Source: an uncultured Planctomycetales bacterium
Lineage (GTDB): Bacteria > Omnitrophota > Gorgyraeia > Zapsychrales > Fredricksoniimonadaceae
Assembly: GCA_964572155.1 (NCBI GenBank)
Contig: CAZNDZ010000001.1
Span: 782,290 to 846,289, forward strand
Direction: 5' to 3'
DNA length: 64,000 bases
Shown here in pieces: positions 3,513 through 25,500 of the stretch (position 1 is the stretch's first letter; each line of letters opens with the position of its first letter). The translations under genes were made by a program, and so were the position numbers. Below the pieces are notes generated by a model, which was not told where the DNA came from, searched no databases, and worked only from the letters and a program-made list of their open reading frames with translations.

Positions 3513-3524
3513 GAAGGAACAGGC

Positions 3525-3746: not shown

Positions 3747-3755
3747 GGATAACAT

Positions 3756-3983: not shown

Positions 3984-4002
3984 TCAAAGATAGGAGACTC
4001 TT

Positions 4003-4755: not shown

Positions 4756-4769
4756 TACCTTGAGGCGAC

Positions 4770-5627: not shown

Positions 5628-5634
5628 GAGATAG

Positions 5635-7095
<1,461 letters not shown>

Positions 7096-8842: not shown

Positions 8843-10031
8843 AGCCAAGAATACTAGCGCACAAACTGTTACGGGGCATGTTCAAGCCCAGCATCAGGAA
8901 GAAGCGTTGGAATTTATCTACAATCAAGGCCTTGTTCCTGTTTCCATCGAAGAAGAAACCAATCGCGGTGTTTTAGTCAGCCAAATTCAAACAAAGAAAA
9001 TTAAGAGCAAAGAAATCTATTTGTTTACAAAACAATTAGCAGGCTTAGTCAAATCTTCCGTGTCGTTGTTAAAAGCTTTAGAAGTTATTGCGCAACAAAA
9101 TCGTAATCCTTATTTTTCAAAAGTTATCGACGAGATAGCTCAAGGGGTCAGGACTGGTCGTTCATTTTCAAATTGTTTGGCGCAGTATCCGGTGATATTT
9201 TCAAATGTCTATGTGTCTATGATTCGTGTTGGGGAGGAGATGGGGCATTTGCGAGATGTGTTGATTGACTTGGCGCAGTTTTATAAACGCCAAGATGAAT
9301 TATCAAGCAAGGTATCGAGTGCGATTGTTTATCCGCTTGTCATGTTAGGCGTGGGTTCATTAACCGTAATCTTTATTCTGACCTTTGTCTTGCCAAAGAT
9401 AGCTGTGATCTTTGCTGATGCACATGAGCAATTACCAACACCGACGATCATCGTGATGACGATTAGTCAGTATGTGCGTTTATTCTGGATTCCAACATTT
9501 GCAGCAGGAGCGATCCTTTTTGTCGGGTTTAATCGTTGGCGCAAAACAAATATGGGTAAGATTGTCATTGGCGGGTGGTTGTTGCGGTTACCCGTCATAA
9601 AAGATTTGGTTATTAAGATTGATTTCACCCGATTTAGTCGCACCACCTTCTTGTTATTGCAGAGTGGTTTGCCATTATTGCGGGCAATTGAGACAGCCGC
9701 TCAAACAATGTCTAATCCGCAGTTAAGGATGGATATGTTAATGACCGCAGAAGCGTTAAGTGGTGGTGAGAATTTTGGACGATCATTAGCGCGTTGTCAT
9801 CATGTGCCTCCTATTTTTATAGAGACTTTGGCGGTTGCGGAAGAGGGTGGGCACTTAAAAGAAGCCTTTGCGGATATTGCTGATTCTTGTGAAATGGATG
9901 TTTCCGACGCTATTAAAACAATTACAACGTTGCTCGAACCTTTTATGATTCTAGCCGTTGGTGCCGTTGTTGGTTTTATTATCTTTGCAATGCTCTTGCC
10001 TATTTTTTCTATGGATATCATGGCCAGATAA
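8823..10031 (+). CDS. gspF: T2SS/T4P inner-membrane platform protein, GspF/PilC family
   Basis: Two tandem GspF domains with 3 TM segments. N terminus MPSFVYKAKNTSAQTVTG is GspF-like. Start taken at ATG 8823, which overlaps the gspE stop by 20 nt; the ORF track begins at 8790. Confidence 0.8.
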   Translation: MPSFVYKAKNTSAQTVTGHVQAQHQEEALEFIYNQGLVPVSIEEETNRGVLVSQIQTKKIKSKEIYLFTKQLAGLVKSSVSLLKALEVIAQQNRNPYFSKVIDEIAQGVRTGRSFSNCLAQYPVIFSNVYVSMIRVGEEMGHLRDVLIDLAQFYKRQDELSSKVSSAIVYPLVMLGVGSLTVIFILTFVLPKIAVIFADAHEQLPTPTIIVMTISQYVRLFWIPTFAAGAILFVGFNRWRKTNMGKIVIGGWLLRLPVIKDLVIKIDFTRFSRTTFLLLQSGLPLLRAIETAAQTMSNPQLRMDMLMTAEALSGGENFGRSLARCHHVPPIFIETLAVAEEGGHLKEAFADIADSCEMDVSDAIKTITTLLEPFMILAVGAVVGFIIFAMLLPIFSMDIMAR

Positions 10032-10032
10032 A

Positions 10033-10860
10033 ATGCCTAACATGTTTACATGGATGCTGTGTTTTTTATTGTTTCTTAATGTTCCAGCACAAGCTTTTGA
10101 GATCAATTTTGATTTGGAACAATGGAAACAGAAGAAAGGCGACCATTTTGTTGTTTATTATACGCAACAATCACAGGAACAGGATGCAGGAGAAATCCTG
10201 CGACATGCTGAAGAGGATTATGAGCGTATCCTAGATCGTATTGGTGCTAAGAAGGTTGATAATTTCTGGACGTGGGATGATCGTGTAAAGATTGTTTATT
10301 ACCCAGATGCGCAAAGTTTTGTGAAAGCAACTGGGCAACCGTCATGGTCTAAGGGTGTTTCCCTGAGCCATGCATCTAATTTCAAAATGCGTTTGATTGT
10401 TAGCTTTCAAGGTCAAGATGACTTTCTAGGTGCCGTCTTGCCACACGAAATTAGTCATTTGGTGATGCATGATTTTATGCGCAATAAACCCATGCCACGT
10501 TGGTTTGATGAGGGGGTTGCACAATTAGACGAAAGCAATAATAACGAGGAGCATCGCAAACTTTTAGCAAAATTGATTGAAAGCAATCGTGGGATTCCTT
10601 TTGCGATGTTGGATGCGTTTCCTTCCATGATCAGTGAGGATCCCATGAAGGCTGCAATATTTTATGCAGAAAGTCTTTACATTGTTGACTTTTTGATTAA
10701 AACTTATGGTAAGGATAATTTTGCCGAATTATGCCGGTTATTAAGAGATGGTCAAAATTTTGAAGCAGCTTTGGCAAAAGCGTATTATCCGACCATAGAT
10801 TCGTGGCAAACATTAGAAGCAAAGTGGAATCAGTACATGTTGTCTTTTGTACACATTTAA
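10033..10860 (+). CDS. Secreted HExxH zinc-metallopeptidase-like protein (gluzincin-like), embedded in the T2SS operon
   Basis: Start at ATG 10033, 1 nt after the gspF stop. Signal peptide MPNMFTWMLCFLLFLNVPAQA. HEISH motif with a downstream DEG glutamate (LPHEISHLVMHDF...WFDEGVAQ). Not a PilD/GspO-type polytopic prepilin peptidase. Confidence 0.55.
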   Translation: MPNMFTWMLCFLLFLNVPAQAFEINFDLEQWKQKKGDHFVVYYTQQSQEQDAGEILRHAEEDYERILDRIGAKKVDNFWTWDDRVKIVYYPDAQSFVKATGQPSWSKGVSLSHASNFKMRLIVSFQGQDDFLGAVLPHEISHLVMHDFMRNKPMPRWFDEGVAQLDESNNNEEHRKLLAKLIESNRGIPFAMLDAFPSMISEDPMKAAIFYAESLYIVDFLIKTYGKDNFAELCRLLRDGQNFEAALAKAYYPTIDSWQTLEAKWNQYMLSFVHI

Positions 10861-10880: not shown

Positions 10881-11300
10881 ATGAATCTACGTAAATTTAA
10901 CCAAGCATTTACCTTAGTTGAGATCTTGCTAGTGGTTGTGATCATTGGGGCATTGGCTGCTATGATCATCCCACGATTTGCAGGTCGAGGAGAAACAGCC
11001 AAGGTCAAAGTTGCTCGGACTGATATCGAAGCAAATATTTCAACAGCCTTGAAATTATATGAATTAGATAATGGCAGCTTTCCTTCAACGTCACAAGGTT
11101 TAGCGGCCTTGAAAACCCGTCCAAGTGGCAATCCAATTCCTGCAAATTGGAATGGTCCTTACATCGAGAAAGCTCCTCTTGATCCTTGGGGTCATGCATA
11201 TGTTTATGCTTCTCCAGGGGAACATCGTTCTGACTATGACCTTTCTTCAAAGGGAAAGGATGAGGCATCTGACAAGGATGACATCACCAATTGGCAATAA
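10881..11300 (+). CDS. gspG: T2SS major pseudopilin GspG
   Basis: Prepilin leader and N-methylation motif (KFNQAFTLVEILLVVVIIG). GspG-specific C-terminal signature GLAALKTRP...PANWNGPYIEKAPLDPWGHAYVYASPGEHRSDYDLSSKGKD...DDITNWQ. Confidence 0.85.
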   Translation: MNLRKFNQAFTLVEILLVVVIIGALAAMIIPRFAGRGETAKVKVARTDIEANISTALKLYELDNGSFPSTSQGLAALKTRPSGNPIPANWNGPYIEKAPLDPWGHAYVYASPGEHRSDYDLSSKGKDEASDKDDITNWQ

Positions 11301-12274: not shown

Positions 12275-13297
12275 GTGCGATTTAGAACATTACGACAAAA
12301 TGGTTTTGTTTTGATCTTTGCCTTATGGGTTTTGGGGTTGTTGACTTTTTTGGCCGTGAGCGTCGCTTTAGGTGTGCGCCAAAAAACGTTAGCGGCAGAG
12401 AAACTCGAAGAGCAAAGTCGCATGTATTATTTGCAAGAAGCGGTGCTTAAGCAAGTTAAGGTGTATATTCGCAAACAAATGAATGACCATCAATTTATTT
12501 ATACGGCAGATCTTAAACAACAACTTCATAATAATATAAACTTTTTTGGCCGCATTCCATTCGGAGCGGACAATGCATCTGTTAGTTTTACGTTGTATGA
12601 TCAAGGTCGTTCCATGGAACAGTTTGGTGTTGTTGACGAGGAGAGAAAGGTTAATCTCAATACAACTAATATCTATGTTTTACAGCGTCTAATCGAGCAA
12701 GTATTAGATGTAAAGCCAGAAGAGCGTTTACAGTTAGCTCAAGCCATTTTGGATTGGCGTCAACAAGGACAATCACAAGCTGACGGTTTTTTTAGCGATG
12801 ATTATTATGGGAATTTGAAACATGCATATTTTAAGAAAGATGCAAATTATGAATTGATGGAAGAGTTGCTATTGGTTAAGTGGATGACGCGCACTAAGTA
12901 TGAACGTTTATTGCCGTATGTGACGGTGTATGGTGAAGGTAAGGTGAATATCAATACAGCGTCGGGTGTTGTGTTGTATGCTTTGGGGCTTGATCATGCT
13001 GTCGTTGAAAAGGTTTTAACGGCCCGACGTGGAAAAGATGGGTTGGAGGCAACCGGGGATGATTTATTTTTTACAAAGACATTTGATGTGGCCAGTGATG
13101 TTGGAAGTCGTGTGAAGTTGGAACCGCAAGAAATGCGCGCCATAGATGCGCTTAATTTACAGGGTGTCTTGACGACAAATTCATATTATTTTTATTGTGC
13201 CATGCAGTCGCGTTTGTCACGCTCGGGTTGGTCTCGCCAAGCCCAAGCCATTTACGCGTCTAGGGATAATAAGGTTTTATATTGGAGAGAAAAATAA
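12275..13297 (+). CDS. gspK: Minor pseudopilin GspK-like protein
   Basis: N-terminal NGFVLIFALWVLGLLTFLAVSVAL matches the GspK G.ALL.VLW.L.LL signature. ~340 aa. Sits after the GspH/I/J-like genes as in gsp operons. Confidence 0.6.
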   Translation: MRFRTLRQNGFVLIFALWVLGLLTFLAVSVALGVRQKTLAAEKLEEQSRMYYLQEAVLKQVKVYIRKQMNDHQFIYTADLKQQLHNNINFFGRIPFGADNASVSFTLYDQGRSMEQFGVVDEERKVNLNTTNIYVLQRLIEQVLDVKPEERLQLAQAILDWRQQGQSQADGFFSDDYYGNLKHAYFKKDANYELMEELLLVKWMTRTKYERLLPYVTVYGEGKVNINTASGVVLYALGLDHAVVEKVLTARRGKDGLEATGDDLFFTKTFDVASDVGSRVKLEPQEMRAIDALNLQGVLTTNSYYFYCAMQSRLSRSGWSRQAQAIYASRDNKVLYWREK

Positions 13298-13366: not shown

Positions 13367-14788
13367 ATGTTCGGAAATGACAAAAAATTTTTAAGTGTCT
13401 TGATCGCAGATGCAACCATCAAAGTGGCACAGGTTACATCTTCCGGTAACGTAGAAAAAATCGCCCGTGCCACAGCAGCGAGCTCTACGCAGGATGAAGT
13501 TGTTAAGGCGCTTAAACCGCTTCTTGGTGGTTTTGATCGCAAGGCATCGGTTGTCTGTGTTATTTCAACAGCACATGCCACATCGAAGAGCATTGAAGTT
13601 CCATCCAGTGATCCAAAAGAAATAAAATCCATTATTAATTTACAAGCTAGCCGTCATACACCATATTCCCGTGAGGAAGTTATCATTGGGCACGTGAATC
13701 TTGGTAGCATGGCAAATGGTAATACCAAAATCCTACTCGTCATTGCTCATCGCAATGTGATAAAAGAACGTTTAGCTATTTTAGAAAAATGTGGTTTAGT
13801 TGCTGATAAGATCTTGTTTGCTCCTGAAGGCATTGGTCGTTTATATTCTAAGGGATTAAATCTTAAGAATAATGCCAGTGTTGGTGTTATCGATTTCGGT
13901 CTAAATAACGTTAATTTCTGCGTAGTCGGTCGAGGCAGCGTGATTTTTGCACGTTCCATCAATTTAGGCATCAAGAATTTGCTAGAGCCTGAAGGTGCAA
14001 AAGCGGTGGCTGATGAAATTAGCAAAACATTGGTTGCATTTCAAGCAGAAGACACCCAAGCGGTTGAATCTTTTATTGTGACAGGCGATCATAGTGTTAT
14101 CAAAGATTTCTTAACCACGTTAAATGATATTTTAAAAGTTGAAGTTCGTCTAAGTCCATATGTATCGCTTTTAAAGACAAATGCAGTGAAGGGTAAATTA
14201 CAAAAAGATTATGCCGATGACTCATTCTTAGAGGTTGTTGCTTCTGCTGTCACAAGCGCTAAATCAGAAGTTAATTTCATCCCAGATGAAATTGTCATGA
14301 AGCGCACGGTTGAACAACAAAGTGTTGAGGCAAGCAAAGCAGGTGTCGCAGGTGTTGTCATCATGTTGCTTTTAGGTGGCATCTTGATGAGTAAGATTTA
14401 TTTCAAAGATGTTTTCTTGACGAAGAATTTAAAACAGCGTTATGCAGAGCAACATGAAGAAGTTGTAGCGTTGCAAAATAAGATGGCTAAGGTGAGGATC
14501 GTCCGGGAATACATGCGCGATCGTCTGGTAGGTCTTGATGTTTTAAAAGAAATTTATCGTGTCACGCCTAATGACATCTATTTGTCAGCGATTAGTTTAG
14601 AAGAAGATGGCTCGTTGACCTTGTCAGGTATTTCACCATCAATGTCACAAATCTTTACTTATGTTAAGACGCTCGACGATTCACCAATGTTTGTCGATGC
14701 CAAAACAAAATCAACCTCAACAAAAAAAGACGGCGCCAAAGATTTAGCTGTGTTTGAGGTGGCATTAAAATTAAAGGAAGCGAATTAG
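13367..14788 (+). CDS. GspL-like / PilM-PilN fusion protein (cytoplasmic actin-like domain, TM, periplasmic domain)
   Basis: N-terminal actin-fold (PilM/GspL-cyto-like) region. Single TM (AGVAGVVIMLLLGGILMSKIYF) near aa 320. PilN/GspL-periplasmic-like C terminus. Preceded by a 69-nt AT-rich gap. Confidence 0.5.
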   Translation: MFGNDKKFLSVLIADATIKVAQVTSSGNVEKIARATAASSTQDEVVKALKPLLGGFDRKASVVCVISTAHATSKSIEVPSSDPKEIKSIINLQASRHTPYSREEVIIGHVNLGSMANGNTKILLVIAHRNVIKERLAILEKCGLVADKILFAPEGIGRLYSKGLNLKNNASVGVIDFGLNNVNFCVVGRGSVIFARSINLGIKNLLEPEGAKAVADEISKTLVAFQAEDTQAVESFIVTGDHSVIKDFLTTLNDILKVEVRLSPYVSLLKTNAVKGKLQKDYADDSFLEVVASAVTSAKSEVNFIPDEIVMKRTVEQQSVEASKAGVAGVVIMLLLGGILMSKIYFKDVFLTKNLKQRYAEQHEEVVALQNKMAKVRIVREYMRDRLVGLDVLKEIYRVTPNDIYLSAISLEEDGSLTLSGISPSMSQIFTYVKTLDDSPMFVDAKTKSTSTKKDGAKDLAVFEVALKLKEAN

Positions 14789-14789
14789 C

Positions 14790-15350
14790 ATGAATGTGAT
14801 CACACAATTTATAGCTGGCTTATCGAGCACAGGAAAAAAGTTATTTGCGATTGCATTTGTGATTGTTGCCATTGCCTTATTTGATCGCTTGCTTATCTCG
14901 CCGACATTGTCCCGCATGTCTGCCATCGATAGTGACATTGAAAAAGAGACCAATAGCATTAAGCAAGATTTACGATTTTTAAGTTATAAAGATAAAATTA
15001 ATTCAGAAAGCAAGGTTTATGCACCATACTTAAGCGAAAAAGCTTTGTCAGAAGAAGAAATTATCTCAGCTTTTTTAAAGAGCATTGAAGTTTTGGCTAA
15101 AAAAGGAAATGTCACGGTTGCAAAAGTAACGCCATCGTCTGGTAGTAAAGAAAAAGATTATGTGAAGTATGTTGCTGATTTAGAATGTTCAGGGGTGTTG
15201 TCTGACGTGGTGACGTTTATCCATTTAATTGATACTTCCGAAGAATTAATGAAGGTAGTGAAATTTAGTTTCTCTTCAAAGAAAGCCGACTCCGACGAAA
15301 TCAAAGCCGTCATGACCATCCACAAGGTCGTTATCTCAAAACGTGATTAG
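14790..15350 (+). CDS. GspM/PilO-like bitopic membrane protein
   Basis: 186 aa with an N-terminal TM (LFAIAFVIVAIALF) and a periplasmic domain. Follows the GspL-like gene after 1 nt. Confidence 0.4.
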   Translation: MNVITQFIAGLSSTGKKLFAIAFVIVAIALFDRLLISPTLSRMSAIDSDIEKETNSIKQDLRFLSYKDKINSESKVYAPYLSEKALSEEEIISAFLKSIEVLAKKGNVTVAKVTPSSGSKEKDYVKYVADLECSGVLSDVVTFIHLIDTSEELMKVVKFSFSSKKADSDEIKAVMTIHKVVISKRD

Positions 15351-16083
15351 ATTTTTCCTCATAGTTTTATTAAGTCTATTCGTTGTTATCCCCAATGCGA
15401 TGTCTGCAACTGTGCGCGAATTATACGAACAAGCTGTTGATAGTTACAATCAACAAAAGTTCGATGATGCCATTACGTCTTATCAAGAGATTTTAAAGAT
15501 GGCTCCAAATTTTGCGCCAGCCTATGTTGGCATCGGTCTTTCTTTGAAAGCTAAGGGGGCAGAGACCGACGAAGTTGTTCATTATTATAATGAAGCTGTG
15601 AATCATGATCCAACCAATTTGCAGGCCTTAGAGCAATTGGGGCGATTGTATTATGCTATTAATCAATTTGATAAAGCAGAGAAGGTTTTTTTAAAATCAC
15701 TTAAGATAAATCCTGCCCAACCAGAGATTAAACAAGCATTGGCATGGGTATATTTGATTGGAAAATCTAAGCCTGAGCTTGCCATCAAGTATTTTAAATC
15801 CGCAGGTCAATTAAATAAGCCAGACACGATGTATGGCCTTGGCATGGCGTATTTTTCTAACAATCAGCGCGTGGAAGCAATGGATATGATGATGCAATTG
15901 CGTTCCGGTGGTTTTGATGATTATGCCAAGCGGCTTGAGCAAGCCATCCGTGAGAACAGGCGTGTTGTCTTAGATAGTAATGAAGATGGTGGTTCGAAAG
16001 AAGATTTTTCCGATATGACAACCAAATCAAGTAAAAGTGGTGTCAAGGTCCGCTTACGCGGCAAGCTCTCCGATTTGAATTAG
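15343..16083 (+). CDS. Exported TPR-repeat protein
   Basis: Signal peptide MIRFFLIVLLSLFVVIPNAMSA. Several TPR-like repeats (AITSYQEILKMAPNFAPAY..., ALEQLGRLYYAINQFDKAEKVF...). Last gene of the T2SS block. Confidence 0.55.
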   Translation: MIRFFLIVLLSLFVVIPNAMSATVRELYEQAVDSYNQQKFDDAITSYQEILKMAPNFAPAYVGIGLSLKAKGAETDEVVHYYNEAVNHDPTNLQALEQLGRLYYAINQFDKAEKVFLKSLKINPAQPEIKQALAWVYLIGKSKPELAIKYFKSAGQLNKPDTMYGLGMAYFSNNQRVEAMDMMMQLRSGGFDDYAKRLEQAIRENRRVVLDSNEDGGSKEDFSDMTTKSSKSGVKVRLRGKLSDLN

Positions 16084-16115
16084 CCATTATATAGATAATA
16101 TGGTATTCTTTTGGC

Positions 16116-19100
16116 ATGCAAGGGAAGTTCTTAAAATTACTCCTATGTTGTTGTTTACTGCCATTTCCTAGATTATTTGCAGGGGAGATTGTATTGCCTG
16201 CACCAGGGACAATGGTGCATTTAAGCCCTGCTGTAGAAATACCCATCTTAAAAGGCATTAAAGTTCACAGCGACGATCCTTTCCGTCTCGAATTCGTCTT
16301 AGACTCCGGAAACAATACATCCACCGATCTAAAGGAAGAATCTAATAAGCTGATTAAATATTTCCTAGCCAGCTTAACCACCCCCGATAAAGACATGTGG
16401 GTCAATCTAAGCCCATATGAAAAAGACCGCATCATCCCAGATCAATTCGGCCAAACTCAAATGGGGCGCGATCTATTGGCGCAAGATTATATCCTCAAAC
16501 AAATCACCGCGAGTTTGATTTATCCCGAGGACACAGTTGGTCGAGAATTTTGGCGACGCGTTTATCAATCTTCAGCAAATAAAAACATTCCCGTTAAGAC
16601 ATTTAACAAAGTATGGATCGTCCCTGATAAGGCTGTTGTCTATGAAAATGCTAAGGCAGGGGCTGCGTATGTTGTGGAATCATCCCTTAAGGTTTTAACA
16701 GAACAAGATTACCTCGCCAGTACCAAAAATAACAATGAATCAAATAACAATCAAATCATCAAAGACGTTGTGATCCCGCAATTAACCAAAGAAATCAACA
16801 CCGGCGCCAACTTTGCTCAGTTGCGACAAGTATACAATGCCTTAATTTTAGCGACGTGGTACAAAAAGAAGATTCAAGACAGTATTTTAAATAAGGTTTA
16901 TTCGGATAAGCATAAGATTCATGGAGCAACATATGAGGACACGTTAGATACTAAATTGATTTATGCGCGTTATTTGGAAGCATTTAAGAAAGGTGCGTAT
17001 AACTACATCAAAGAAGATACTGAAACGCTTGGCATTACAGGGCCAAGAAAGTATTTTTCTGGTGGATTTAATTTGGCGTTGAGTGGTGATGACAGCCTAA
17101 AGGTTACAACGGATGCGGCCATGGTATATCGACGTAGGGATCATTTAATGCAAGTGGATGTTAATCTTTCAGGCATTTCATCACCATCAAGAAACTTGTC
17201 AGGGAAGAAAGTTAAGTTTTCTGAATTTGTTGAATGGATGAATCAAGATTTTGATAATCCTCATGTGCTTTCTGACGCAGAAGTTTCCTCGTTAGCTGCA
17301 AGATTTAATATTCAACATCGAGATTTTGATCTATTGAAAAAAGAAGGAATGAATATTGCTAAGGGAAGTTATGCGTTTTATCAAGATTTACCAAAAGATG
17401 GAAAGTTAAATGTCTATTTATTCCGTGATGCATTTGGACTATACCTTGCGGATAAGATGTCTGGTGGAGATCCTTTAGCCATGATGGTTTCAAAAACCTC
17501 TGTTAGTTCATTAGGATTGGATGGATTAGACGTGGAGATGTCTGCCGTTGTTGATGAGATCAAAAGGAGGATGGGTTTAGCACTGGATGCTCCTATACCT
17601 GAAGAGCAATATGCTAGATTTAAGCAATTATTTTTTAAGTTTTGGGACAACTTATTTGAACATAAAAGCGTTGGAAAGATGTCGTCGGATGATGCGTTTG
17701 TTTTGAAGGATCAAGATAATCTCATCAATGCCATGCATCAGTTATCTGCATATGCCAATAGCATAGGGATAACCAGTCAATTGGTAAAGACGAGAGGGGT
17801 TAGATTTATTGATACTACGATGAGAGGGACCCTTGTTCTTTTTATGGAAGCTGTGGTGCATATGATGGCTAAAAGTGATGGTTTACAACAGGATCAGATT
17901 AAAACAGATAGTCGGATGTTTTATAGTCAATGGTCGCAAGCTTTAAGCGCACTAAAGTTATCTTCATCTGAAAAGATTGCGCGCATGACAGAATATTTTG
18001 ATTATCCTATTAGGTTTAGAGGATTTGATAAGAATTATACGCCACGCGTAGAATTTCGAGATCCTCACTTTATCAACAAGTTTATTTTTTTAACACGATT
18101 AATAAAAAGTGAACTCTTAAGATTAAATCAAGATCACGCTCAAATGTCACAAAGTTTGTCGATGGATGATATTTCAATAATACAGACGATGCCTTTGAGT
18201 GAGGCTGGCAAGCAATTGATTGTACGTAAGGCGCGGGGGTTGATGGGACAAATGCAAGCTAATAGAGCACTATACCAAAATGGTCAGCACGATATATGGC
18301 AGGATGTTCCATCTTTAATAATGAGTAATCCATATTCTGCTGTTTTTCGTCCAGAAAATAAAGAGGCAATTCATGTGTATGCAGAGGAATTAAAAAGATT
18401 ATGGCTAGAGAATGGATTTGATGAGGCTTATGGGGCGCTTACTGAGGTTATCGCAGCGTTTGAAGCAAACAAAGGCGCCCGTCCATCACAGCTCACATTG
18501 TTTCACCAAGTATTCCTGCAATTTCTAGAGAGTTTCGATGCGCAAGCGAAGGCGATGGGTTTAGCACAGTTAGTCGTTAATCATAGTTTGCATTTAAGGT
18601 TTAATGGATTGCATGATGAGGTGCATGATGTTAATTGGGGTTCAGTCTTTATTGATAATGAATTATTAATTGGTCATGATGATATACAGGGAGCGCTTCA
18701 GAGGTATTTACTATCATTAGTTGAGTTAAGCAAAGACAAAAACAGATGGGAATCTATTCTACCGGGTAAGGACGGAGCAGCGAATCATTTAGGGATTAGA
18801 TTAAAAGATCATTTGTTATGGGTGCTTGTTCTAGGAATAGATCCTAGTCTTCATGCATTTACAAATCAACCAAATGATGTCATAGATGAGGTGTTGAAGA
18901 AATATTGGGGCACTGATAATCGAGAACAGGTGATGCAATTGGCTGTAAAGAAGATATTTAGCGATCCATTATTAAAAGATCATCTGGAAGAGATTAATGT
19001 ATTAGTCAAAGAAGCGTTAACGATTTCTTCTCAAGAGTGGGAAAGCAAAGGTTTACGTTCACCATATCGTTTTGGTGTGGATTTTGGAAGTGCTGAATTA

Positions 19101-19508
19101 TTATTCAAATCGACAAGATTTGCAGATACATCAGCTTGGGAAAAGTATCCTTTAAAAGATAGGTTTTTGATGGTTGGTTTGCAACCTGAATTTCTGCCCA
19201 CGTATGAGATCTTTGAAGATAGAGGTCTTAAGGGGAGAGTTGATGTGTATTTGGCACAAGATAAGGGTAAAGATTTGAGACCTTTGTATGAAAGAATTTT
19301 AGAGAAACAGTTATCCCTGTCGCCAACAGGTGGGATTGATTTGAATGCGAGTAGAATGAATTTGGAGACGCAGCAGGTTGGGGAGGGGATTCGGTTTAGG
19401 TTGGATGAGGGGCAAATTGAGCGTTTGAAAGATATGGAAGGTTTGTCGCATGTGATTATTAAGATTGCACCTGTCACAGATCTGCAGCAGTTTTTAGGGA
19501 TTTTATAA
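16116..19508 (+). CDS. Giant exported protein, paralog 1 of 3 (1130 aa). Conserved N-terminal ~330-aa domain and conserved C-terminal ~60-aa 'GGIDLNA' domain.
   Basis: Signal peptide MQGKFLKLLLCCCLLPFPRLFAG. The N-domain is near-identical in long stretches to those at 38454 and 55642 (LPAPGTMV.LSP, LIKYFLASLT, WVNLSPYEKDRI, GRDLLAQDYLLKQITASL, FNKVWIVP, LRQVYNALILATWYK, AFKKGAYNYIKE, PRKYFSGG). C terminus PTGGIDLNASRMNLETQ...IKIAPVTDLQQFLG. Confidence 0.8.
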   Translation: MQGKFLKLLLCCCLLPFPRLFAGEIVLPAPGTMVHLSPAVEIPILKGIKVHSDDPFRLEFVLDSGNNTSTDLKEESNKLIKYFLASLTTPDKDMWVNLSPYEKDRIIPDQFGQTQMGRDLLAQDYILKQITASLIYPEDTVGREFWRRVYQSSANKNIPVKTFNKVWIVPDKAVVYENAKAGAAYVVESSLKVLTEQDYLASTKNNNESNNNQIIKDVVIPQLTKEINTGANFAQLRQVYNALILATWYKKKIQDSILNKVYSDKHKIHGATYEDTLDTKLIYARYLEAFKKGAYNYIKEDTETLGITGPRKYFSGGFNLALSGDDSLKVTTDAAMVYRRRDHLMQVDVNLSGISSPSRNLSGKKVKFSEFVEWMNQDFDNPHVLSDAEVSSLAARFNIQHRDFDLLKKEGMNIAKGSYAFYQDLPKDGKLNVYLFRDAFGLYLADKMSGGDPLAMMVSKTSVSSLGLDGLDVEMSAVVDEIKRRMGLALDAPIPEEQYARFKQLFFKFWDNLFEHKSVGKMSSDDAFVLKDQDNLINAMHQLSAYANSIGITSQLVKTRGVRFIDTTMRGTLVLFMEAVVHMMAKSDGLQQDQIKTDSRMFYSQWSQALSALKLSSSEKIARMTEYFDYPIRFRGFDKNYTPRVEFRDPHFINKFIFLTRLIKSELLRLNQDHAQMSQSLSMDDISIIQTMPLSEAGKQLIVRKARGLMGQMQANRALYQNGQHDIWQDVPSLIMSNPYSAVFRPENKEAIHVYAEELKRLWLENGFDEAYGALTEVIAAFEANKGARPSQLTLFHQVFLQFLESFDAQAKAMGLAQLVVNHSLHLRFNGLHDEVHDVNWGSVFIDNELLIGHDDIQGALQRYLLSLVELSKDKNRWESILPGKDGAANHLGIRLKDHLLWVLVLGIDPSLHAFTNQPNDVIDEVLKKYWGTDNREQVMQLAVKKIFSDPLLKDHLEEINVLVKEALTISSQEWESKGLRSPYRFGVDFGSAELLFKSTRFADTSAWEKYPLKDRFLMVGLQPEFLPTYEIFEDRGLKGRVDVYLAQDKGKDLRPLYERILEKQLSLSPTGGIDLNASRMNLETQQVGEGIRFRLDEGQIERLKDMEGLSHVIIKIAPVTDLQQFLGIL

Positions 19509-21971
19509 GACTTGAAATGTTTTGATTTGTGTCCTGCCGGTTAAATCACTGCTTGATTTGATGAGTTTGAAGTTTTCCATCCCTTGTCCGTTAAAGAAAT
19601 ATAATTTCATCATCAGTGAATTCGCTAATGAAGTATCCATCAAGCGGCATAGGGTTTGATTGTCTTGGGTGTAGATGACGATGGAGTAATTCAGTGATGC
19701 GTTGGGAATCTTTTGTTCAGTTATCACGCCGTCTTTAAGGTAAACAATGCTCTGCGGGCTGCCGTGGCCGTATTGATTTGAGTTCATGATGGCGCGTTTA
19801 TAATCTGGGCTGACGAGCAAGCCAGGGGCAAAGAGCAGGCCATCGTCGGTTTTATTCACGACAGTAAATTGTTCGCTAAACTTAGACGGGCCGCCGGCTA
19901 ATTCCCAGAGATAATTGATGAAATCTTTGGAGTTAGGTTTTGGCGCAAGGCTTAATAGGGCGGGGCTTGAATTAATTTCTTCGATCTTCCGAAAGTTGCG
20001 TCGGCCCACAAAAACAATCCCGATATTTTCTTCTACAATCTCATTATAAATTAACAAATAGCTATGTGGCATGGTGCTATGGGTGAGGCGTAATAATTGA
20101 TTGGCATCGTTGACACTCATTAATGAAGTCAAAGTACCGCGCGCGTCATTTAATGATTGCGGGGCAATGGTGGTTAAGATATCGACTGCATCAGAAGTCT
20201 TGAATTTCTTCGATAATAAAAATTCCGTTGCTTTATTGCCGCTTAAATTGAGCATGCGCAAGATGCCTTTGGCTTCTTGCTCGTCGTTGCTAAGGTAAAC
20301 TTTGGCCATCCAATAGCCGGTCTGACCTTCACTTAATGAGGCGCCATCAAACATGACCCGTCTGTTAGCAATGGCTTTGATAAAATGACCGGGCGGCCAC
20401 CACGTGTTGATGATGGCGTCACTGGGTGTTTTTGTTCTAAGTGCGGATAAGTTGTCATTCCACACGTCATTGAAGATGGGGGTTAAGACGGTGCGGATAT
20501 TAGCATTGGCTTCAACCCAACAAAATCCAACCAAGCCCAAACCACATGCGAGGCTGATCCATGTTGATTGAGGAATACGTCTGATGTTCTCAAGTATCAT
20601 CTGAAGTGCTAAACCAAAGAATAAACTTAGAGGGATGATCATAAAGATAACAAAACGCGTGGCTTTAAGTGTTAATACCGTCGTGATCAATAAGAATATT
20701 AAGACGATGATATTCTTTAAGTGAGCAGGATTCAGGCGATCTTTAAATAATTTAAAACAAGCAATCATGCTTCCTATAAAACTTAATGTTAAAAATATTG
20801 GACCGCCGGTGTCGCCTAAGATATCGGTAAGACTAGATTTCTTTAATTCACCAACTTCCATAAATAAATTAGGCCATAGGTTTAAACCTTTGTTGGTGAA
20901 TTTGCCCAATTCACTGCTACCCTCGGTAAAGAAGGTAAAAAATCCGCTCACACCATAAATCAATATTCCGATGACAATGATTGTTGTTAAAAAGGTCAGT
21001 ATAAACGTAAATTGAAGCGAGATGATGGATTTATTCTTTTGAATAATAAAGCCATATCCGCCGATCGCGCATGCGGCTATGAGGGTTAAGAAGAACAAGA
21101 AAATCCAACCTTGCCATATGAGTGAGAATAAGATTAAGTTAAGACTCAATAACCCTGCCCAGATCATCATATTGCGTGTCGTGGAAGTGGGGATGGCCTT
21201 AAAGATGATATACAGAAAGCCTAAGGTGAAAAGCAAGTTGTAAGGATCTGTGTCATACCAACCTAATGCACTACGTTTAAGAAAAACAGGGAGCATAGCA
21301 AAGTAAAATGTGCTGATTGCAACGACGGGGTAGGATAAGCCAAATAATCGTGCGCAAGCAATAAAAGCCCCGATGACAAAAAATGTTAACACCAGTGGTG
21401 TGATGGCGGCAGCTTCCATGAGTTTGATTGAGCTATTGAATATTTGTGCAATTTTGTAGACGATAAATCCAACATATGGGTGAAGGCTTAAGGGTTGCCA
21501 GAAACCAAATGGGGCGCCCATGTAGGTGTTGAAATATTGATGGCCTTTGATCACTTTTGCCATTTTCCCAGTGTTTAAGATGTTTTCTGTTAAGTTATAA
21601 AAATAAAAGGGGTCAGCCTCAAGCAAATACACATTATTTGGCAATCCACTTTGAGCAAACATGGCTTGATTTGTTTTCTCAATGGCGCGAGACAGGTTGC
21701 TTTTTTCTTTGCGCAATGTTTCGTTTAATTTCGTTGTCGCAATGTGGCTAGCTTCCTCGATGGACATTTGAGGATATTGCGCGTGAATTTGGGACAAAAA
21801 ATTTTGTTTGAGGTTATAGACAACCGACATGGTTGCGGCTTCATGGGTGGGGGCCCAAATGTGGCCCCAGTGGGGAAAACAGCGGATGTAAATGCTTAAT
21901 AGGCCAACAATAACCCAAATGCATAAAGCCCACCCCCAAGATTTTTGAAGATTTTTTAACATAGAAGGCAT
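19503..21971 (-). CDS. STT3/PglB/AglB-family oligosaccharyltransferase-like polytopic membrane protein
   Basis: 822 aa with ~13 TM segments, then a soluble C-terminal domain. The first external loop GWYDTDPYN resembles PglB GYYDTDM. INTWWPPGHFIKAIANRRVMFDGASL matches the WWDYGY...DGG region of PglB. Convergent with the giant gene; their 3' ends overlap by 6 nt. Confidence 0.55.
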   Translation of the reverse strand: MPSMLKNLQKSWGWALCIWVIVGLLSIYIRCFPHWGHIWAPTHEAATMSVVYNLKQNFLSQIHAQYPQMSIEEASHIATTKLNETLRKEKSNLSRAIEKTNQAMFAQSGLPNNVYLLEADPFYFYNLTENILNTGKMAKVIKGHQYFNTYMGAPFGFWQPLSLHPYVGFIVYKIAQIFNSSIKLMEAAAITPLVLTFFVIGAFIACARLFGLSYPVVAISTFYFAMLPVFLKRSALGWYDTDPYNLLFTLGFLYIIFKAIPTSTTRNMMIWAGLLSLNLILFSLIWQGWIFLFFLTLIAACAIGGYGFIIQKNKSIISLQFTFILTFLTTIIVIGILIYGVSGFFTFFTEGSSELGKFTNKGLNLWPNLFMEVGELKKSSLTDILGDTGGPIFLTLSFIGSMIACFKLFKDRLNPAHLKNIIVLIFLLITTVLTLKATRFVIFMIIPLSLFFGLALQMILENIRRIPQSTWISLACGLGLVGFCWVEANANIRTVLTPIFNDVWNDNLSALRTKTPSDAIINTWWPPGHFIKAIANRRVMFDGASLSEGQTGYWMAKVYLSNDEQEAKGILRMLNLSGNKATEFLLSKKFKTSDAVDILTTIAPQSLNDARGTLTSLMSVNDANQLLRLTHSTMPHSYLLIYNEIVEENIGIVFVGRRNFRKIEEINSSPALLSLAPKPNSKDFINYLWELAGGPSKFSEQFTVVNKTDDGLLFAPGLLVSPDYKRAIMNSNQYGHGSPQSIVYLKDGVITEQKIPNASLNYSIVIYTQDNQTLCRLMDTSLANSLMMKLYFFNGQGMENFKLIKSSSDLTGRTQIKTFQVL

Positions 21972-21987
21972 TATCCTAAAATTTCAT

Positions 21988-22674
21988 TTATTGTCTACGG
22001 ATATTTGAGAGTAAAGTTAAATATTGTTCGTGGATTTTGTCAGAAGCAATGCAGAGGCTAGAACGTTCTTTGCTTTGATGTTTACCCATCACCATTCCAA
22101 GTAACTTTCCTTGGCGGTTAAAGATAGGGCCGCCACTATCTCCTTGATATAAATTCAAGTTTGTTTCTATGAATTCTATTGTACCTTGTGAACGACTTTG
22201 AATCAGGCTTGTGATATTTCCTGATAAGATGCTGTTATTGTTATATTCAGATGATCCAATGGCAATGATAGGTTCTCCAATTTGCGCTAACGCTGAGTCT
22301 GCAAACTTAACAGGGCTTAGTCCGAAACCAGGATTGATTTTAAGGATACTAAAGTCGTGGTCGATAGATACATATAGCACTTGTGCGTTATAGCTTTTTT
22401 TGTTAGACAAGGTGATGATAATGCGTGGCGCATTCTTAATAATATGGGTGTTGGTGACGATTAAACCCTTTGCGTCAATGATGATCCCTGTACCTTGGCG
22501 GGTGTAGGCTACTTGTTTCTTGCCTTTTTTTGTCGACATGACCTTGGTATAAACGGTTTGAACGCTAACCAAAGATTTTTCTAAACGTTGCATTTGCTCT
22601 AAAACAGAGGGTCCGGCATGGCACACCTGCGGTACAAAAAATATACAAATAAGGCAGTAAATAATTCTTAACAT
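21988..22674 (-). CDS. Exported trypsin-like (S1 family) serine protease
   Basis: Signal peptide MLRIIYCLICIFFVPQVCHA. Catalytic serine motif GDSGGPIF. TNTHI histidine region. 228 aa with no PDZ domain. Lies upstream of the OST-like gene on the minus strand. Confidence 0.7.
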   Translation of the reverse strand: MLRIIYCLICIFFVPQVCHAGPSVLEQMQRLEKSLVSVQTVYTKVMSTKKGKKQVAYTRQGTGIIIDAKGLIVTNTHIIKNAPRIIITLSNKKSYNAQVLYVSIDHDFSILKINPGFGLSPVKFADSALAQIGEPIIAIGSSEYNNNSILSGNITSLIQSRSQGTIEFIETNLNLYQGDSGGPIFNRQGKLLGMVMGKHQSKERSSLCIASDKIHEQYLTLLSNIRRQ

Positions 22675-22703
22675 TATTTTATTCTACCGTATAATAATCG
22701 CTT

Positions 22704-23354
22704 ATGTCTAACCTTATTATACGTCCCTTTACGAAATCTGACACCCAAGCTGTTCGAGATATTTGTGCAGACGCAGCGGATAGGGGAGAGCGGGTTGAGA
22801 ATTTTTATCCAGATAGGGAAAGCATTACGGATCTCTTGTGTGGCTATTATACCGACTATGAACCGCAGTCTTTGTTTGTAGCTCAACAAGATGGTCGTGT
22901 AGTTGGTTACATCATGGGTTGTTTTGATAATCGTCGCTATGGTTTGGCCATGACATGGATTATCATTCCTAAAGCATTGTTTAAAGCATTTAAGCGTGGC
23001 GTTTTCTTTCAGCAGCAATTTTGGGCATTAATCGCTGGTATGTTGCAGAATTGGCCGCGTTTATTTGCATGGCGCAAAGAATCATTTCATAGTCACGCTG
23101 GTCATTTTCATATTGGCATTGCCAAAGATTTTAGGGGACAGCATATTGGTCCTAAATTAATGGAAGCATTATCAACGTATGCCAAAGGTCAGCATGTTAC
23201 ATCCTTATCTGCGTCGGTGCATGATGGTAATATTTCTGCAGTTAAGTTTTTTGAGAAAGCAAAATTTAAAATCATTCAACGTTACCCCATGCGCATGTAT
23301 CAGGGGGGTAAGTACGTTGATTATCAATCGCTCTTATATGTTAAAGAAATTTAG
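22704..23354 (+). CDS. GNAT-family N-acetyltransferase
   Basis: 216 aa. GNAT-like core (IRPFTKSDTQAVRDI..., acetyl-CoA-binding-like region HIGIAKDFRGQHIGPKLMEAL). Confidence 0.55.
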   Translation: MSNLIIRPFTKSDTQAVRDICADAADRGERVENFYPDRESITDLLCGYYTDYEPQSLFVAQQDGRVVGYIMGCFDNRRYGLAMTWIIIPKALFKAFKRGVFFQQQFWALIAGMLQNWPRLFAWRKESFHSHAGHFHIGIAKDFRGQHIGPKLMEALSTYAKGQHVTSLSASVHDGNISAVKFFEKAKFKIIQRYPMRMYQGGKYVDYQSLLYVKEI

Positions 23355-24720
23355 TCTAATCATTGTGTTATTGTTGGTCACCGTCGTGAATGCTTTGGCC
23401 GCAGATACTAGTATTCCTGAATTGACCTTGTCCCCAGATGATCGCATTTTGGTTTTAGCGCCACATCCTGATGATGAGGTTTTGGGTACGGCAGGCATTT
23501 TGCAAAGGGCTGTAAGCATGAATATCCCCGTCAAGGTCGTTTTCTTTACATATGGGGATAGCAATCAATGGTCATTTTTGCTCTACCGCAAGCACCCTGT
23601 TTTTATCCCCAAGGCGGTTGAGAATATGGGGCTTGTCCGTCGAGATGAAGCGATTTCAGCCGCAAGTATTTTAGGGGTAAAACGAGACGATTTAATCTTC
23701 TTAGGGTATCCGGACTTTGGTACCATGAATATTTGGTCTGCGCATTGGAATGATCGCAAACCTTTGCGTAGCATGTTCACCCGCGTTAAGAAGGTTCCGT
23801 ATCAAGGGGCTTTAAGACCAGGAGCACCATATAAGGGAGAAGAAATCCTGCGTGATTTGCGTTCCGTCTTACATGCATTTAAACCAACCAAGATTTTTCT
23901 GTCACATCCTGCGGATCATAATGGGGATCATTTGTCCTTGTATTTGTTTACGCGGGTCGCTTTATGGGACGAAGGGATGGAGAACAATGTCGCGCTGTAT
24001 CCATATTTAATCCATTACGTGGGTTGGCCTAAACCATTTGGTTTTCATCCAGAGCGCACCTTAAAGCCACCCGAAGCGTTTAGTAAAATTATTTCGTGGC
24101 AACAATTTACGTTATCAAAACAGGAATTTACTTTTAAGAAAGCTGCTTTACAAGCGCATAAAACACAATACACCTCCTCGCGCAGTTATTTATCGTCGTT
24201 CTTGCGTCAAAATGAACTCTTTGGAGATTTTCCAGTAATACGTTTGCATATCAATGAAAACTCTTCGGTATTTTCAACTAAATATAAATTTACCCCCAGC
24301 GCTGCGTTGCCTGAAGAATTAAGTCCTAAAGAAAAGTTAGCATTTGTTGGTATTGAATGGAAATTTGTGCGTTGGGAAGGGGACCATTTGTCTGTATCCA
24401 TAGCCTTATCAAAGCCATTGGCCGCAAATGTGGAAGCCTCGATTTATATTTTTGGTTACCAAAGAAATGGGGATAAAACGCCCTTTGCTCAAATGCCAAA
24501 GATTAGGGTGAATTTGGGTGTTCTTAGTTATAATGTTTTTGATCAGGACAAACGCATCGACCAAGGCTCTGTTGAGATCAAGCGGAGTGCCAATGAGATT
24601 ATCATTAATGTTCCTTTAAAATTAATTGGTAATCCTGACCGTATTCTAACCAGTGCGCGCACCTATTTGGATAATGTGCCGCTTGATAGTGCCTCGTGGA
24701 TGGCTGTGGAGCTAAATTAA
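23338..24720 (+). CDS. Exported PIG-L/LmbE-family N-acetylglucosaminyl deacetylase with a ~220-aa C-terminal beta-rich extension
   Basis: Start at ATG 23338 (the ORF track begins at 23179). Signal peptide MLKKFSLIIVLLLVTVVNALAA. PIG-L motif LVLAPHPDDEVLG plus a HPADHNGDH histidine cluster. Overlaps the GNAT 3' end by 17 nt. Confidence 0.7.
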   Translation: MLKKFSLIIVLLLVTVVNALAADTSIPELTLSPDDRILVLAPHPDDEVLGTAGILQRAVSMNIPVKVVFFTYGDSNQWSFLLYRKHPVFIPKAVENMGLVRRDEAISAASILGVKRDDLIFLGYPDFGTMNIWSAHWNDRKPLRSMFTRVKKVPYQGALRPGAPYKGEEILRDLRSVLHAFKPTKIFLSHPADHNGDHLSLYLFTRVALWDEGMENNVALYPYLIHYVGWPKPFGFHPERTLKPPEAFSKIISWQQFTLSKQEFTFKKAALQAHKTQYTSSRSYLSSFLRQNELFGDFPVIRLHINENSSVFSTKYKFTPSAALPEELSPKEKLAFVGIEWKFVRWEGDHLSVSIALSKPLAANVEASIYIFGYQRNGDKTPFAQMPKIRVNLGVLSYNVFDQDKRIDQGSVEIKRSANEIIINVPLKLIGNPDRILTSARTYLDNVPLDSASWMAVELN

Positions 24721-25500
24721 ATGGATTTCTTTCATGCGATTATTCTAGGGATTGTAGAAGGGGTAACCGAGTATTTGCCTGTTTCTTCGACGGGGCATAT
24801 GATCATTGCCTCACATTTATTGCATTTACCTGAAACAGAATTCTTAAAGACATTTGAAATTGCTATCCAATTAGGCGCCATTGTGGCAGTGTTTTCATTG
24901 TATTGGCGCACATTTTTATTAGATTGGGAAGTGGGGCAAAAAGTATTAGCAGCTTTTATACCTACGGCCGTCATCGGGTTTGTTGTTTATAAATTCGTGA
25001 AGCATTTTTTGATGGGGAATGTTTTTGTTGTTGTTCTTTCATTATTTATTGGCGGGGTTATCCTTATTGTTTTTGAAATGCTTCATAAAGGCAAAGAAGG
25101 TAAGACCAATCGATTAGAGGCCATTTCATACCCACAAGCCATTGTGATTGGTTTGTGTCAGTCTGTGGCTGTTATCCCAGGGGTTTCACGTTCTGCTGCC
25201 ACCATCCTTGCTGGTTTAATGGTTGGGATAAGCCGACAGACAATTGTAGAATTTTCATTTCTACTTGCCGTACCGACGATTAGTGCCGCTGTTGCTTTAG
25301 ATATCTTAAAAAGTTCTGCGAGCATTACTTCAATGCAATGGGGTTTATTGGCGGTAGGGTTTCTGGTGGCTTTTGTGGTGGCATGGGGCAGTGTGAAGTT
25401 CTTATTGAGGTTTATCAAACATAATGATTTTATCGTTTTTGGGGTTTATCGCATTTGTGTGGCTGTGCTTTTATTCTTTTTACTTTTAGGACATTTGTAG
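24721..25500 (+). CDS. uppP: Undecaprenyl-diphosphate phosphatase
   Basis: N-terminal VEGVTEYLPVSSTGHMII and the PGVSRSAATI motif, both typical of UppP/BacA. 8 TM segments. Confidence 0.85.
   Translation: MDFFHAIILGIVEGVTEYLPVSSTGHMIIASHLLHLPETEFLKTFEIAIQLGAIVAVFSLYWRTFLLDWEVGQKVLAAFIPTAVIGFVVYKFVKHFLMGNVFVVVLSLFIGGVILIVFEMLHKGKEGKTNRLEAISYPQAIVIGLCQSVAVIPGVSRSAATILAGLMVGISRQTIVEFSFLLAVPTISAAVALDILKSSASITSMQWGLLAVGFLVAFVVAWGSVKFLLRFIKHNDFIVFGVYRICVAVLLFFLLLGHL

Follow-up and report, generated by a model that had tools for sequence, protein, structure and literature searches.

A candidate archaeal-type STT3/AglB-family oligosaccharyltransferase with a predicted altered acceptor rule beside a pseudopilus gene cluster in Omnitrophota

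A 64,000-nucleotide stretch of an Omnitrophota genome, recorded as an uncultured Planctomycetales bacterium (assembly GCA_964572155.1, contig CAZNDZ010000001.1, positions 782,290 to 846,289; hereafter the window, numbered from its first letter), carries on its minus strand a gene for an 822-aa polytopic protein. On sequence and predicted fold, the best reading of this gene is that it encodes an archaeal-type oligosaccharyltransferase (OST) of the STT3/AglB family (GT66, GT-C fold) with an altered acceptor rule. What appears to be new is a phylum-wide bacterial OST of AglB type that lacks the aspartate of the WWD motif and is tied to a pseudopilus locus. The composite explanation favoured here, at a rough probability of 0.55, is that such an archaeal-type OST, with its altered acceptor rule, acts on exported proteins, with the pseudopilus supplying the likely clients.

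To our knowledge, bacterial STT3-type protein glycosylation has been established experimentally almost only in Campylobacterota and some Desulfobacterota. The searchable literature yielded no paper that treats Omnitrophota together with STT3 or oligosaccharyltransferase. Preprints on giant or long proteins of Omnitrophota (one of them 10.64898/2026.06.07.730766) note nearby loci resembling a type II secretion system (T2SS) and do not mention an STT3-like enzyme. Databases annotate the family automatically as 'STT3 domain-containing', leaving it visible but uncharacterised.

The STT3-like protein and its active site

The window is about 40% GC, and nearly all of its genes lie on the plus strand. 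Two open reading frames (ORFs) form its sole convincing minus-strand unit, since the remaining minus-strand ORFs (at 1790, 19031, 22674-23018, 57926, 62837, and 63275) overlap plus-strand genes or give translations resembling shadow ORFs, with no Pfam hit. An earlier sequence-only reading of the window, made by a model without database searches, had named the same protease and 822-aa polytopic protein as the only minus-strand genes, and in this it was correct.

19503..21971, minus strand: STT3/AglB-family GT-C glycosyltransferase, 822 aa (PF02516, 81.3 bits; AlphaFold2 (AF2) model, Foldseek, and motif census)
21988..22674, minus strand: secreted trypsin-fold serine protease (S1, HtrA-like, no PDZ domain), 228 aa (PF13365, 97 bits)

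The match to PF02516 (STT3) spans residues 114-458 with an E-value of 1.4e-22, against a cutoff of 24.5 bits; no NCBIfam model matched the protein, and at least 100 homologues all carry a precomputed PF02516 match. In identical contigs, the gene call begins at M4, giving 819 aa as opposed to the 822 aa of the ORF. Searches of all Protein Data Bank (PDB) sequences with phmmer and with a family profile returned matches confined to STT3A, STT3B, AglB, and PglB; the profile aligned the catalytic motifs and scored both STT3A (56.6 bits) and AglB (39 bits) above PglB. The AF2 model, built on a 30-sequence alignment (pLDDT 89.5, pTM 0.86), contains 13 transmembrane (TM) helices, all before residue 496, followed by a mixed alpha/beta periplasmic domain.

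Foldseek against the PDB placed Campylobacter lari PglB first (5ogl; E 7.8e-21, TM-score 0.67 normalised to PglB), with AglB (1e-14), STT3A (4e-14), and STT3A/B and yeast Stt3 (1e-14 to 1e-12) next, and the top 19 matches are PglB, AglB, or STT3 without exception. The C-terminal domain alone matches 3aag (E 5.7e-9). More distant matches are DPY19 (2e-8), AftA (8e-6), ArnT (1.8e-5), and PMT (1.9e-2 or worse). Membership of the STT3 family at the level of the fold is regarded as virtually certain. The PglB/STT3-like assignment of the sequence-only reading is thus upheld by Pfam and by Foldseek alike, and the ArnT/PMT-type identity that it had set against this assignment is rejected: the only Pfam family matched is STT3, with no PMT or ArnT hit, and the Foldseek E-value for ArnT stands at 1.8e-5 against 7.8e-21 for PglB.

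The motif set of OSTs comprises two DXD motifs, TIXE/SVSE, WWDYG, DGGK, and DK/MI, with the Ser/Thr-binding sequon pocket built by WWDYG together with DK/MI (PMC8342417). The first DXD-type motif of the STT3-like protein is E118-A-D120 in LLEADPFYFY, in which D120 is the catalytic Asp of external loop 1 (EL1); LLEAD120PFY aligns with HEFD49PYF of STT3A and GND47PWY of Archaeoglobus fulgidus AglB (AfAglB). The second is D240-T-D242 in GWYDTDPY (236-243), in the loop after TM4 and aligned with D-N-E of STT3A (in the HMMER alignment, with GSYDNEGI of human STT3A). GWYDTDPY had previously been taken for the EL1 motif of PglB; the motif is present, but it is the second DXD-type motif, and the EL1 Asp is D120. 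The EL5 Glu (equivalent to TIXE/SVSE) is E375 in V-G-E375, within a low-confidence loop (360-390) between TM9 and TM10, and was placed by topology and conservation, not by superposition. Further motifs are a conserved R439, W524-W525-P-P-G-H (WWDYG without its Asp), and D542-G-A-S (DGGK without its Lys). The WW block, WWPPGHFIKAIANRRVMFDG at 524-543, was aligned to human STT3A by HMMER; the WW..G...DG block that had been likened to WWDYGY...DGG therefore exists, albeit with the Asp of WWD missing.

Across 30 members of the family (24-71% identity), D120, D242, G374-E375, R439-F440, W524, W525, P527, G528, and D542-G543 are invariant, which argues for a working enzyme. The protein is likely to be an active glycosyltransferase, judged by these residues, and very probably OST-like in its chemistry. 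The acceptor pocket is another matter. At the WWD position, WW[PA]PGH (WWPPGH in the window) is found in all 74 full-length orthologues taken from species-level genomes, and P, A, S, C, or T replaces the Asp in about 97% of 245 family proteins. In place of DGGK, the near clade has DGA[ST] and a deep clade (27-30% identity to the window protein, motif WWPPGY) has DGGT, the Lys being missing in both. Because the Asp of WWD is missing from the orthologues and from about 97% of the family, the canonical N-x-S/T rule is probably inapplicable; reading of N-x-S/T by the STT3-like protein should not be assumed, and canonical sequon-directed N-glycosylation appears doubtful. Two rare members, P0231 (YWDPGY) and P0242 (WFDPGY), keep the Asp and have lost one Trp, and may represent intermediates or reversions in the evolution of the WWD motif.

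A pattern scan in which each GTDB species was represented by one genome found relatives encoded in at least 172 species genomes. Among the best 80 of these 172, every record naming a phylum is Candidatus Omnitrophota, the remainder being 'uncultured Planctomycetales' or unnamed metagenome-assembled genomes (MAGs). An HMMER scan of 1.84 billion representatives returned 1,246 clusters at 50% identity (E ≤ 1e-30), and the homologues with a named source are Candidatus Omnitrophota MAGs. The sole match outside Omnitrophota in a word-indexed search is the AglB of a Candidatus Nanoarchaeia MAG (P0102; DPANN), whose contig carries the archaeal markers aEF-1beta, aS21, and ZPR1. P0102 aligns end to end (117 bits), retains WWDFGH, and has in common with the family the motifs FDGAS, GILRML, and a C-terminal LMxxLxxSL...GxGxxNF. 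The alignment and shared motifs of P0102, in addition to the higher profile scores for STT3A and AglB than for PglB, point to an archaeal-type enzyme, possibly acquired horizontally. An earlier account of the euryarchaeal STT3 clade reported only 'a few bacterial homologues' in it (Lombard 2016, PMC4973528).

Linkage to a protease and a pseudopilus cluster

The protease gene lies 16 nt upstream of the STT3-like gene on the same strand, and the two therefore probably form one operon. The protease possesses a signal peptide and an intact His/Asp/GDSGGP triad; DegP/HtrA models match its protease domain only, and there is no PDZ domain. Together with the PF13365 match, these features confirm the periplasmic trypsin-like protease that had been read from the sequence. 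Synteny was counted with window proteins as tblastn queries against 80 species-level Omnitrophota loci (E ≤ 1e-5, approximate ORF calls), the denominators being loci with enough available flank; the loci are MAG contigs, some of them mislabelled 'Planctomycetales'. An S1 protease stands directly upstream of STT3 on the same strand in 60 of 69 loci.

The 3' end of the STT3-like gene is approached from the opposite strand by what may best be described as a pseudopilus cluster of T2SS-like or type IV-filament kind:

7097..8842, plus strand: T2SS/type IV pilus (T4P) assembly ATPase of GspE/MshE type with an N-terminal MshEN domain, first gene of the cluster (PF00437, 432 bits; PF05157, 58 bits)
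8790..10031, plus strand: GspF/PilC-type platform protein (PF00482, 192 bits)
10033..10860, plus strand: Peptidase_MA_2 protein within the pilus cluster (PF13485, 60 bits; gene call in locus L003)
10881..11300, plus strand: GspG-type major pseudopilin with a class III (prepilin) N-terminus, FTLVEILLV (PF08334, 113 bits; PF07963)
11278-11682, plus strand: minor pilin-like gene, N_methyl (gene call and Pfam in locus L003, family consensus)
11679-12269, plus strand: minor pilin-like gene, N-terminus FTLMEILLV (translation; gene call and Pfam in locus L003, family consensus)
12275..13297, plus strand: GspK-type minor pseudopilin (NCBIfam NF037980, 80 bits; PF21687)
13367..15350, plus strand: PilM-PilN fusion (13367-14788) and PilO-like protein (14790-15350) (TIGR01175; PF11104 and PF05137; weak PF04350)
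15400..16083, plus strand: tetratricopeptide repeat (TPR) protein, last conserved gene of the cluster (TPR Pfam hits)

The order is thus GspE(MshEN)-GspF-GspG-minor pilins-GspK-PilMN-PilO-TPR. The T2SS components present are GspE(MshEN), GspF, GspG, two pilin-like genes, and GspK, with the PilM-PilN fusion and the PilO-like protein replacing GspL/M; no secretin was found in the cluster or in the 64-kb window. The MshEN domain of the ATPase binds c-di-GMP, and a stand-alone PilZ gene lies at 28281-28661, 6 kb past the STT3 region; the two together hint at c-di-GMP control of the filament.

Across species, the TPR gene is convergent with STT3 within 1 kb in 53 of 72 loci and within 6 kb in 49 of 55, and in most species its 3' end faces that of STT3. 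Farther along the cluster, the expected order is kept by the PilO-like gene (46/54 loci), PilM-PilN (40/48), GspK (39/45), and GspG (37/45), and by GspE(MshEN) in loci with flank extending that far. A reciprocal search, starting from PilM-PilN in JGI metagenome contigs, found an STT3-like gene convergent downstream in 21 of the 24 loci with at least 9 kb of flank. The junction between TPR and STT3 (16084-19502 in the window) is an insertion hot spot across species (loci L007-L086), holding, according to lineage, a hybrid histidine kinase with a response regulator; GH57/DUF3536 with GH77 and DsbA/MauE; a 1784-aa all-TPR protein; or long modular proteins.

The deep clade shows a different arrangement, in which STT3 is co-directional with the pseudopilus cluster and embedded in it between TPR and GspK. 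The order there begins ATP synthase beta - GspE(MshEN) - GspF - GspG - pilins - PilMN - x - TPR and continues (DUF2304 and a 235-aa GT2, opposite strand) - STT3 - ORF of about 115 aa - 344-aa GT2 - GspK - S41 C-terminal processing protease. Four of the five deep-clade loci have this arrangement; the fifth, a short contig, has STT3 followed by GT2. The linkage between STT3 and the pseudopilus thus survives rearrangement of the cluster. The best NCBIfam matches of the 235-aa GT2, all below cutoffs, are the polyprenyl-phospho-GalNAc synthase PpgS, AglJ, and dolichyl-phosphate hexose transferase, and the matches of the 344-aa GT2 include MftF (top), AglG, and PglI. Where glycan-building genes stand beside STT3, they therefore look like archaeal-style polyprenyl-phosphate enzymes. 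A second GT-C gene (PMT_2, about 540 aa), an LA_3751/3752-like putative glycosyltransferase, and a metalloprotease-TPR fusion of about 620 aa (Peptidase_M10/Reprolysin with TPR) recur some 5-9 kb downstream of STT3, close to the pilus-STT3 cluster, in deep-clade loci (L005, L087, and L089).

Proposed role and competing explanations

The STT3-like enzyme would transfer a short glycan in the periplasm from a polyprenyl-phosphate carrier to one or more exported proteins, following an acceptor rule other than the classical N-x-S/T. By parallel with AglB and with the pilin transferases TfpW and TfpO, its likeliest clients would be components or cargo of the adjacent pseudopilus system; that the pseudopilus components themselves are clients is a tentative proposal made by analogy. 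In the deep clade, the glycan would be assembled by the neighbouring AglJ-like (polyprenyl-P-sugar synthase) and AglG-like GT2 enzymes, and in the window's clade the assembly genes would have to lie elsewhere.

The Omnitrophota protein resembles archaeal AglB (A. fulgidus AglB-L; PDB 3waj, 5gmy, and 7e9s) in its GT-C fold of 13 TM helices, in the globular domain at its C terminus, and in having both DXD motifs, the Glu of EL5, and the conserved Arg; its AglJ- and AglG-like GT2 neighbours in the deep clade are reminiscent of the Dol-P-based pathway of archaea. Type IV pilins and archaellins are glycosylated by AglB in archaea (PMC4336324, PMC2952790). The Omnitrophota host, however, is bacterial, a diderm with lipopolysaccharide (LPS) genes; the Asp of WWD has become Pro, Ala, or Ser and DGGK has no Lys; and the gene stands beside those of a periplasmic serine protease and of a pseudopilus cluster of GspG/GspK type, with no N-x-S/T signal in its neighbours. 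Campylobacter PglB (PDB 3rce, 5ogl, and 6gxc), a single-subunit bacterial periplasmic enzyme, is the best structural match, but identity to it is only about 14%, the Omnitrophota protein does not conserve WWDYG and gave no identifiable MI motif, and its locus shows neither an adjacent pgl-type cluster (PglC/A/J/H/I/K) nor enrichment of D/E-x-N-x-S/T. No pgl-type cluster for a lipid-linked oligosaccharide (LLO) surrounds the OST in the 64-kb window or appears among the 25 most frequent upstream families, the two GT2 genes being found in the deep clade only. Eukaryotic STT3A and STT3B are the top-scoring solved sequences for the family profile, and their ExD, DxE/DxD, and WW..G blocks align; the multi-subunit complex, WWDYG, the double sequon DNXTZNX[T/S], and the DK motif of the eukaryotic enzymes have no counterpart found in the Omnitrophota protein.

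A parallel in gene neighbourhood comes from pilin-dedicated transferases (Pseudomonas TfpW and TfpO/PilO; Neisseria PglL), which are likewise polytopic, lipid-carrier-dependent enzymes encoded beside type IV-filament genes, TfpW being a GT-C enzyme of a Pseudomonas pilin locus (10.1101/2020.04.19.049825). Modification of filament subunits in the periplasm, the role of these enzymes, is also the one proposed in Omnitrophota. TfpW, in contrast to the Omnitrophota enzyme, is a GT-C transferase outside the STT3 family, and TfpO/PilO and PglL are Wzy_C O-OTases; all are O-linked systems. The Omnitrophota STT3 gene, moreover, follows the assembly genes and not the major pilin gene.

A whole uncultured phylum of the Planctomycetes-Verrucomicrobia-Chlamydiae (PVC) group carries a conserved STT3/AglB homologue with an intact catalytic centre that is, in effect, a natural family-wide 'mutant' of the motif reading the +2 Ser/Thr. 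Were the enzyme active, it would offer a new acceptor specificity in a much-engineered enzyme class, of relevance to glycoengineering, would document archaea-to-bacteria transfer of a central N-glycosylation enzyme, and would tie glycosylation to pilus-like secretion machinery in a group regarded as host-dependent or predatory.

Several observations weigh against the favoured explanation of an OST serving the pseudopilus. On the side of the enzyme, the OST core domain PF21436 reaches only 16.9 bits on the window protein, under its cutoff of 23; Arg stands in for D240 in about 20% of members (RTD 47, DTD 129, DND 34); and no DxxK or MxxI block representing DK/MI could be assigned from the family alignments. 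No GT2, PglC/WecA-type initiating transferase, or flippase is present in the 64-kb window. On the side of the clients, observed/expected sequon counts over 16 neighbour protein families in the 80 loci gave no signal (GspG 0.96, minor pilin 1.04), the cytoplasmic control GspE (1.4) ranking no lower than any exported family, and no family-specific conserved Asn or motif was found in GspG, minor pilins, GspK, PilO-like, TPR, protease, or Peptidase_MA proteins, in which only generic GspG/GspK motifs appeared. Since the Asp of WWD is missing, absence of sequons is uninformative regarding glycosylation by another rule. As for the linkage itself, ATP synthase beta likewise keeps its place upstream of GspE, deep clade included. 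This adjacency, held even in the deep clade, indicates an unusually stable gene order in Omnitrophota, and since synteny in the phylum is generally conservative, adjacency alone is weak functional evidence.

These last points favour general glycosylation, in which an OST with a relaxed or novel sequon would modify many periplasmic or surface proteins and its place beside the pseudopilus genes would be inherited gene order. PglB and AglB are general glycosylation systems in model organisms, and the lack of a sequon or conserved-Asn signal in the pilus proteins, like the ATP synthase beta-GspE adjacency, is in keeping with such a role. The linkage, however, takes two forms (STT3 convergent with the end of the cluster, or lying inside it between TPR and GspK), is recovered reciprocally in 21 of 24 loci, and persists despite unrelated insertions at the junction; general glycosylation is hence considered somewhat unlikely. 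A more specific history, in which Omnitrophota took an AglB-type OST from DPANN-like archaea, rewired WWD to WWP, and dedicated the enzyme, together with the protease, to modification of the pseudopilus or its cargo, is in our judgement unlikely as a whole. If true, it would describe a bacterial type IV filament system glycosylated in archaeal style under a new rule other than N-x-S/T, and might bear on attachment to, or predation on, archaeal hosts.

It is improbable that the enzyme acts on a non-protein acceptor or as a hydrolase, releasing free oligosaccharide from its lipid carrier or passing sugar to an envelope lipid or polysaccharide. Loss of the Asp of WWD and of the Lys of DGGK would suit this activity, OSTs possess an intrinsic LLO-hydrolase activity (PMC8342417), and other GT-C families that act on lipids or glycans (ArnT and Aft) are distant fold matches. 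Set against this, the EL5 xVGE, which in OSTs pairs with the backbone of the acceptor peptide, and both Trp residues of WWD are invariant; the closest folds are all protein OSTs, by at least 10 orders of magnitude in E-value; and protein clients are implied by its operon partner, a protease.

Adjacent genes, long proteins, and the remainder of the window

The STT3-like gene and its protease are flanked in the window by a long-protein gene on one side and by three genes on the other, beyond which lies an amino-acid permease gene:

16116..19508, plus strand: 1130-aa modular long protein with a signal peptide or anchor (no Pfam hit; paralogous to 38454-43613 and 55642-57852)
22704..23354, plus strand: cytoplasmic GNAT acetyltransferase, divergent from protease-STT3 (PF00583, 51 bits)
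about 23317..24720, plus strand: exported PIG-L/LmbE-family de-N-acetylase with an extra C-terminal domain (PF02585, 76 bits)
24721..25500, plus strand: undecaprenyl-diphosphate phosphatase UppP/BacA (PF02673, 240 bits; TIGR00753, 231 bits, above cutoff)

The sequence-only reading had joined these into a coherent kit, in which STT3, GNAT, PIG-L, and UppP build, trim, and recycle a lipid-linked glycan for transfer en bloc to giant secreted paralogues. Its description of the locus stands. The GNAT, the PIG-L (with the signal peptide MLKKFSLIIVLLLVTVVNALA, the AHPDDE zinc motif, and an extra beta-rich C-terminal region of about 250 aa), and UppP are direct neighbours, as Pfam and NCBIfam confirm. 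The convergent long-protein and STT3 genes do overlap at their 3' ends, interlocking at the palindrome TTATAA (19503-19508), where the stop codon of either gene, read on the opposite strand, is the last Leu codon of the other, leaving no space for an intergenic terminator. These adjacencies favour the kit, as do the signal-peptide-like N-terminus of the long protein and the presence of GNAT and PIG-L beside protease-STT3 throughout a subclade at 40% identity or more to the window protein.

Comparison across species nevertheless largely refutes it already. GNAT is adjacent to the STT3 locus in 19 of 63 loci, PIG-L in 17 of 57 (with 7 further PIG-L proteins among the upstream ORFs of a Pfam census), and UppP in 8 of 54; thus GNAT and PIG-L occur in about 30%, and all of their cases fall within the subclade. 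The census covered 150 ORFs upstream of the protease in 59 loci; its 25 most frequent families, led by transketolase, response regulators, GST, and NUDIX, include no glycosyltransferase or LLO gene. The GNAT is cytoplasmic, and the PIG-L gives weak matches to deacetylases of thiol pathways. GNAT, the exported PIG-L, and UppP are better described as clade-specific neighbours, which may at most tailor the glycan in the subclade or may be unrelated to it; UppP is a housekeeping gene whose adjacency is not conserved.

The proposed acceptors fare no better. Three long paralogues do exist, at 16116 (1130 aa), 38454 (1719 aa, with a glucosamine-6-P isomerase-like domain), and 55642 (736 aa), but what they have in common is limited to an N-terminal domain of about 330 aa (50-64% identity, starting LPAPGTMV.LSP and including a signal peptide) and about 60 aa at the C terminus, and their middles are unrelated. 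A homologue lies between TPR and STT3 in only 4 of 63 loci, with unrelated genes at this junction in other lineages; the 1130-aa protein is thus a lineage-specific insertion and not a conserved partner. The three paralogues contain 22 N-x-S/T sequons, against 17.0 expected from the window background (P 0.14) or 17.5 from their own composition (P 0.17), and neither N-x-S/T nor D/E-x-N-x-S/T rises above background when counted across all 53 ORFs of the window and in the three paralogues. Such a count had been named beforehand as the test of the giant proteins as glycosylation targets, and it tells against them, as does the loss of the Asp of WWD, which makes N-x-S/T reading doubtful. Many Omnitrophota long proteins have, furthermore, been argued to be membrane-anchored with a cytoplasmic bulk (10.64898/2026.06.07.730766, a 2026 preprint). 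A kit serving the giant paralogues is hence judged very improbable, and the comparison corrects what is a tempting reading of the deacetylase, acetyltransferase, and UppP genes and the large proteins as one pathway. Least credible of all is an STT3-like protein devoid of catalytic activity, serving alongside the HtrA-like protease as a scaffold or chaperone that binds unfolded exported proteins: it would fit the pairing with a quality-control-type protease and the degenerate sequon pocket, but D120, D242, E375, and R439 are strictly conserved over at least 1,000 diverged clusters, and GT2 lipid-sugar synthase genes are adjacent in the deep clade.

The long paralogues themselves have the appearance of a family that swaps cargo, perhaps related to the 'long protein' modules of Omnitrophota reported in the same preprint; a homologue in locus L021 carries HAD, HATPase, and HEAT domains. 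Two other large ORFs were rejected as giant paralogues, that at 30803 (1076 aa) for want of similarity to the other long proteins and that at 35695 (913 aa) because it is PEP carboxylase. The former has no Pfam hit, and its start is overlapped by a CE4 polysaccharide deacetylase gene (30028-30843; whole region 30028-34033).

Upstream of GspE, the window carries F-type ATP synthase genes at 1659-7095: alpha (1659), epsilon-like (3207), c-like (3525), b/delta (4003), gamma (4770), and beta (5638). Housekeeping blocks typical of a diderm are KdsB-KdsA-KdsD-KdsC-LptC/LptA-LptB (44682-49249) and uppS-cdsA-dxr-rseP (59080-62840), by which synthesis of LPS and of undecaprenyl phosphate is encoded; UppS is 34 kb away from UppP.

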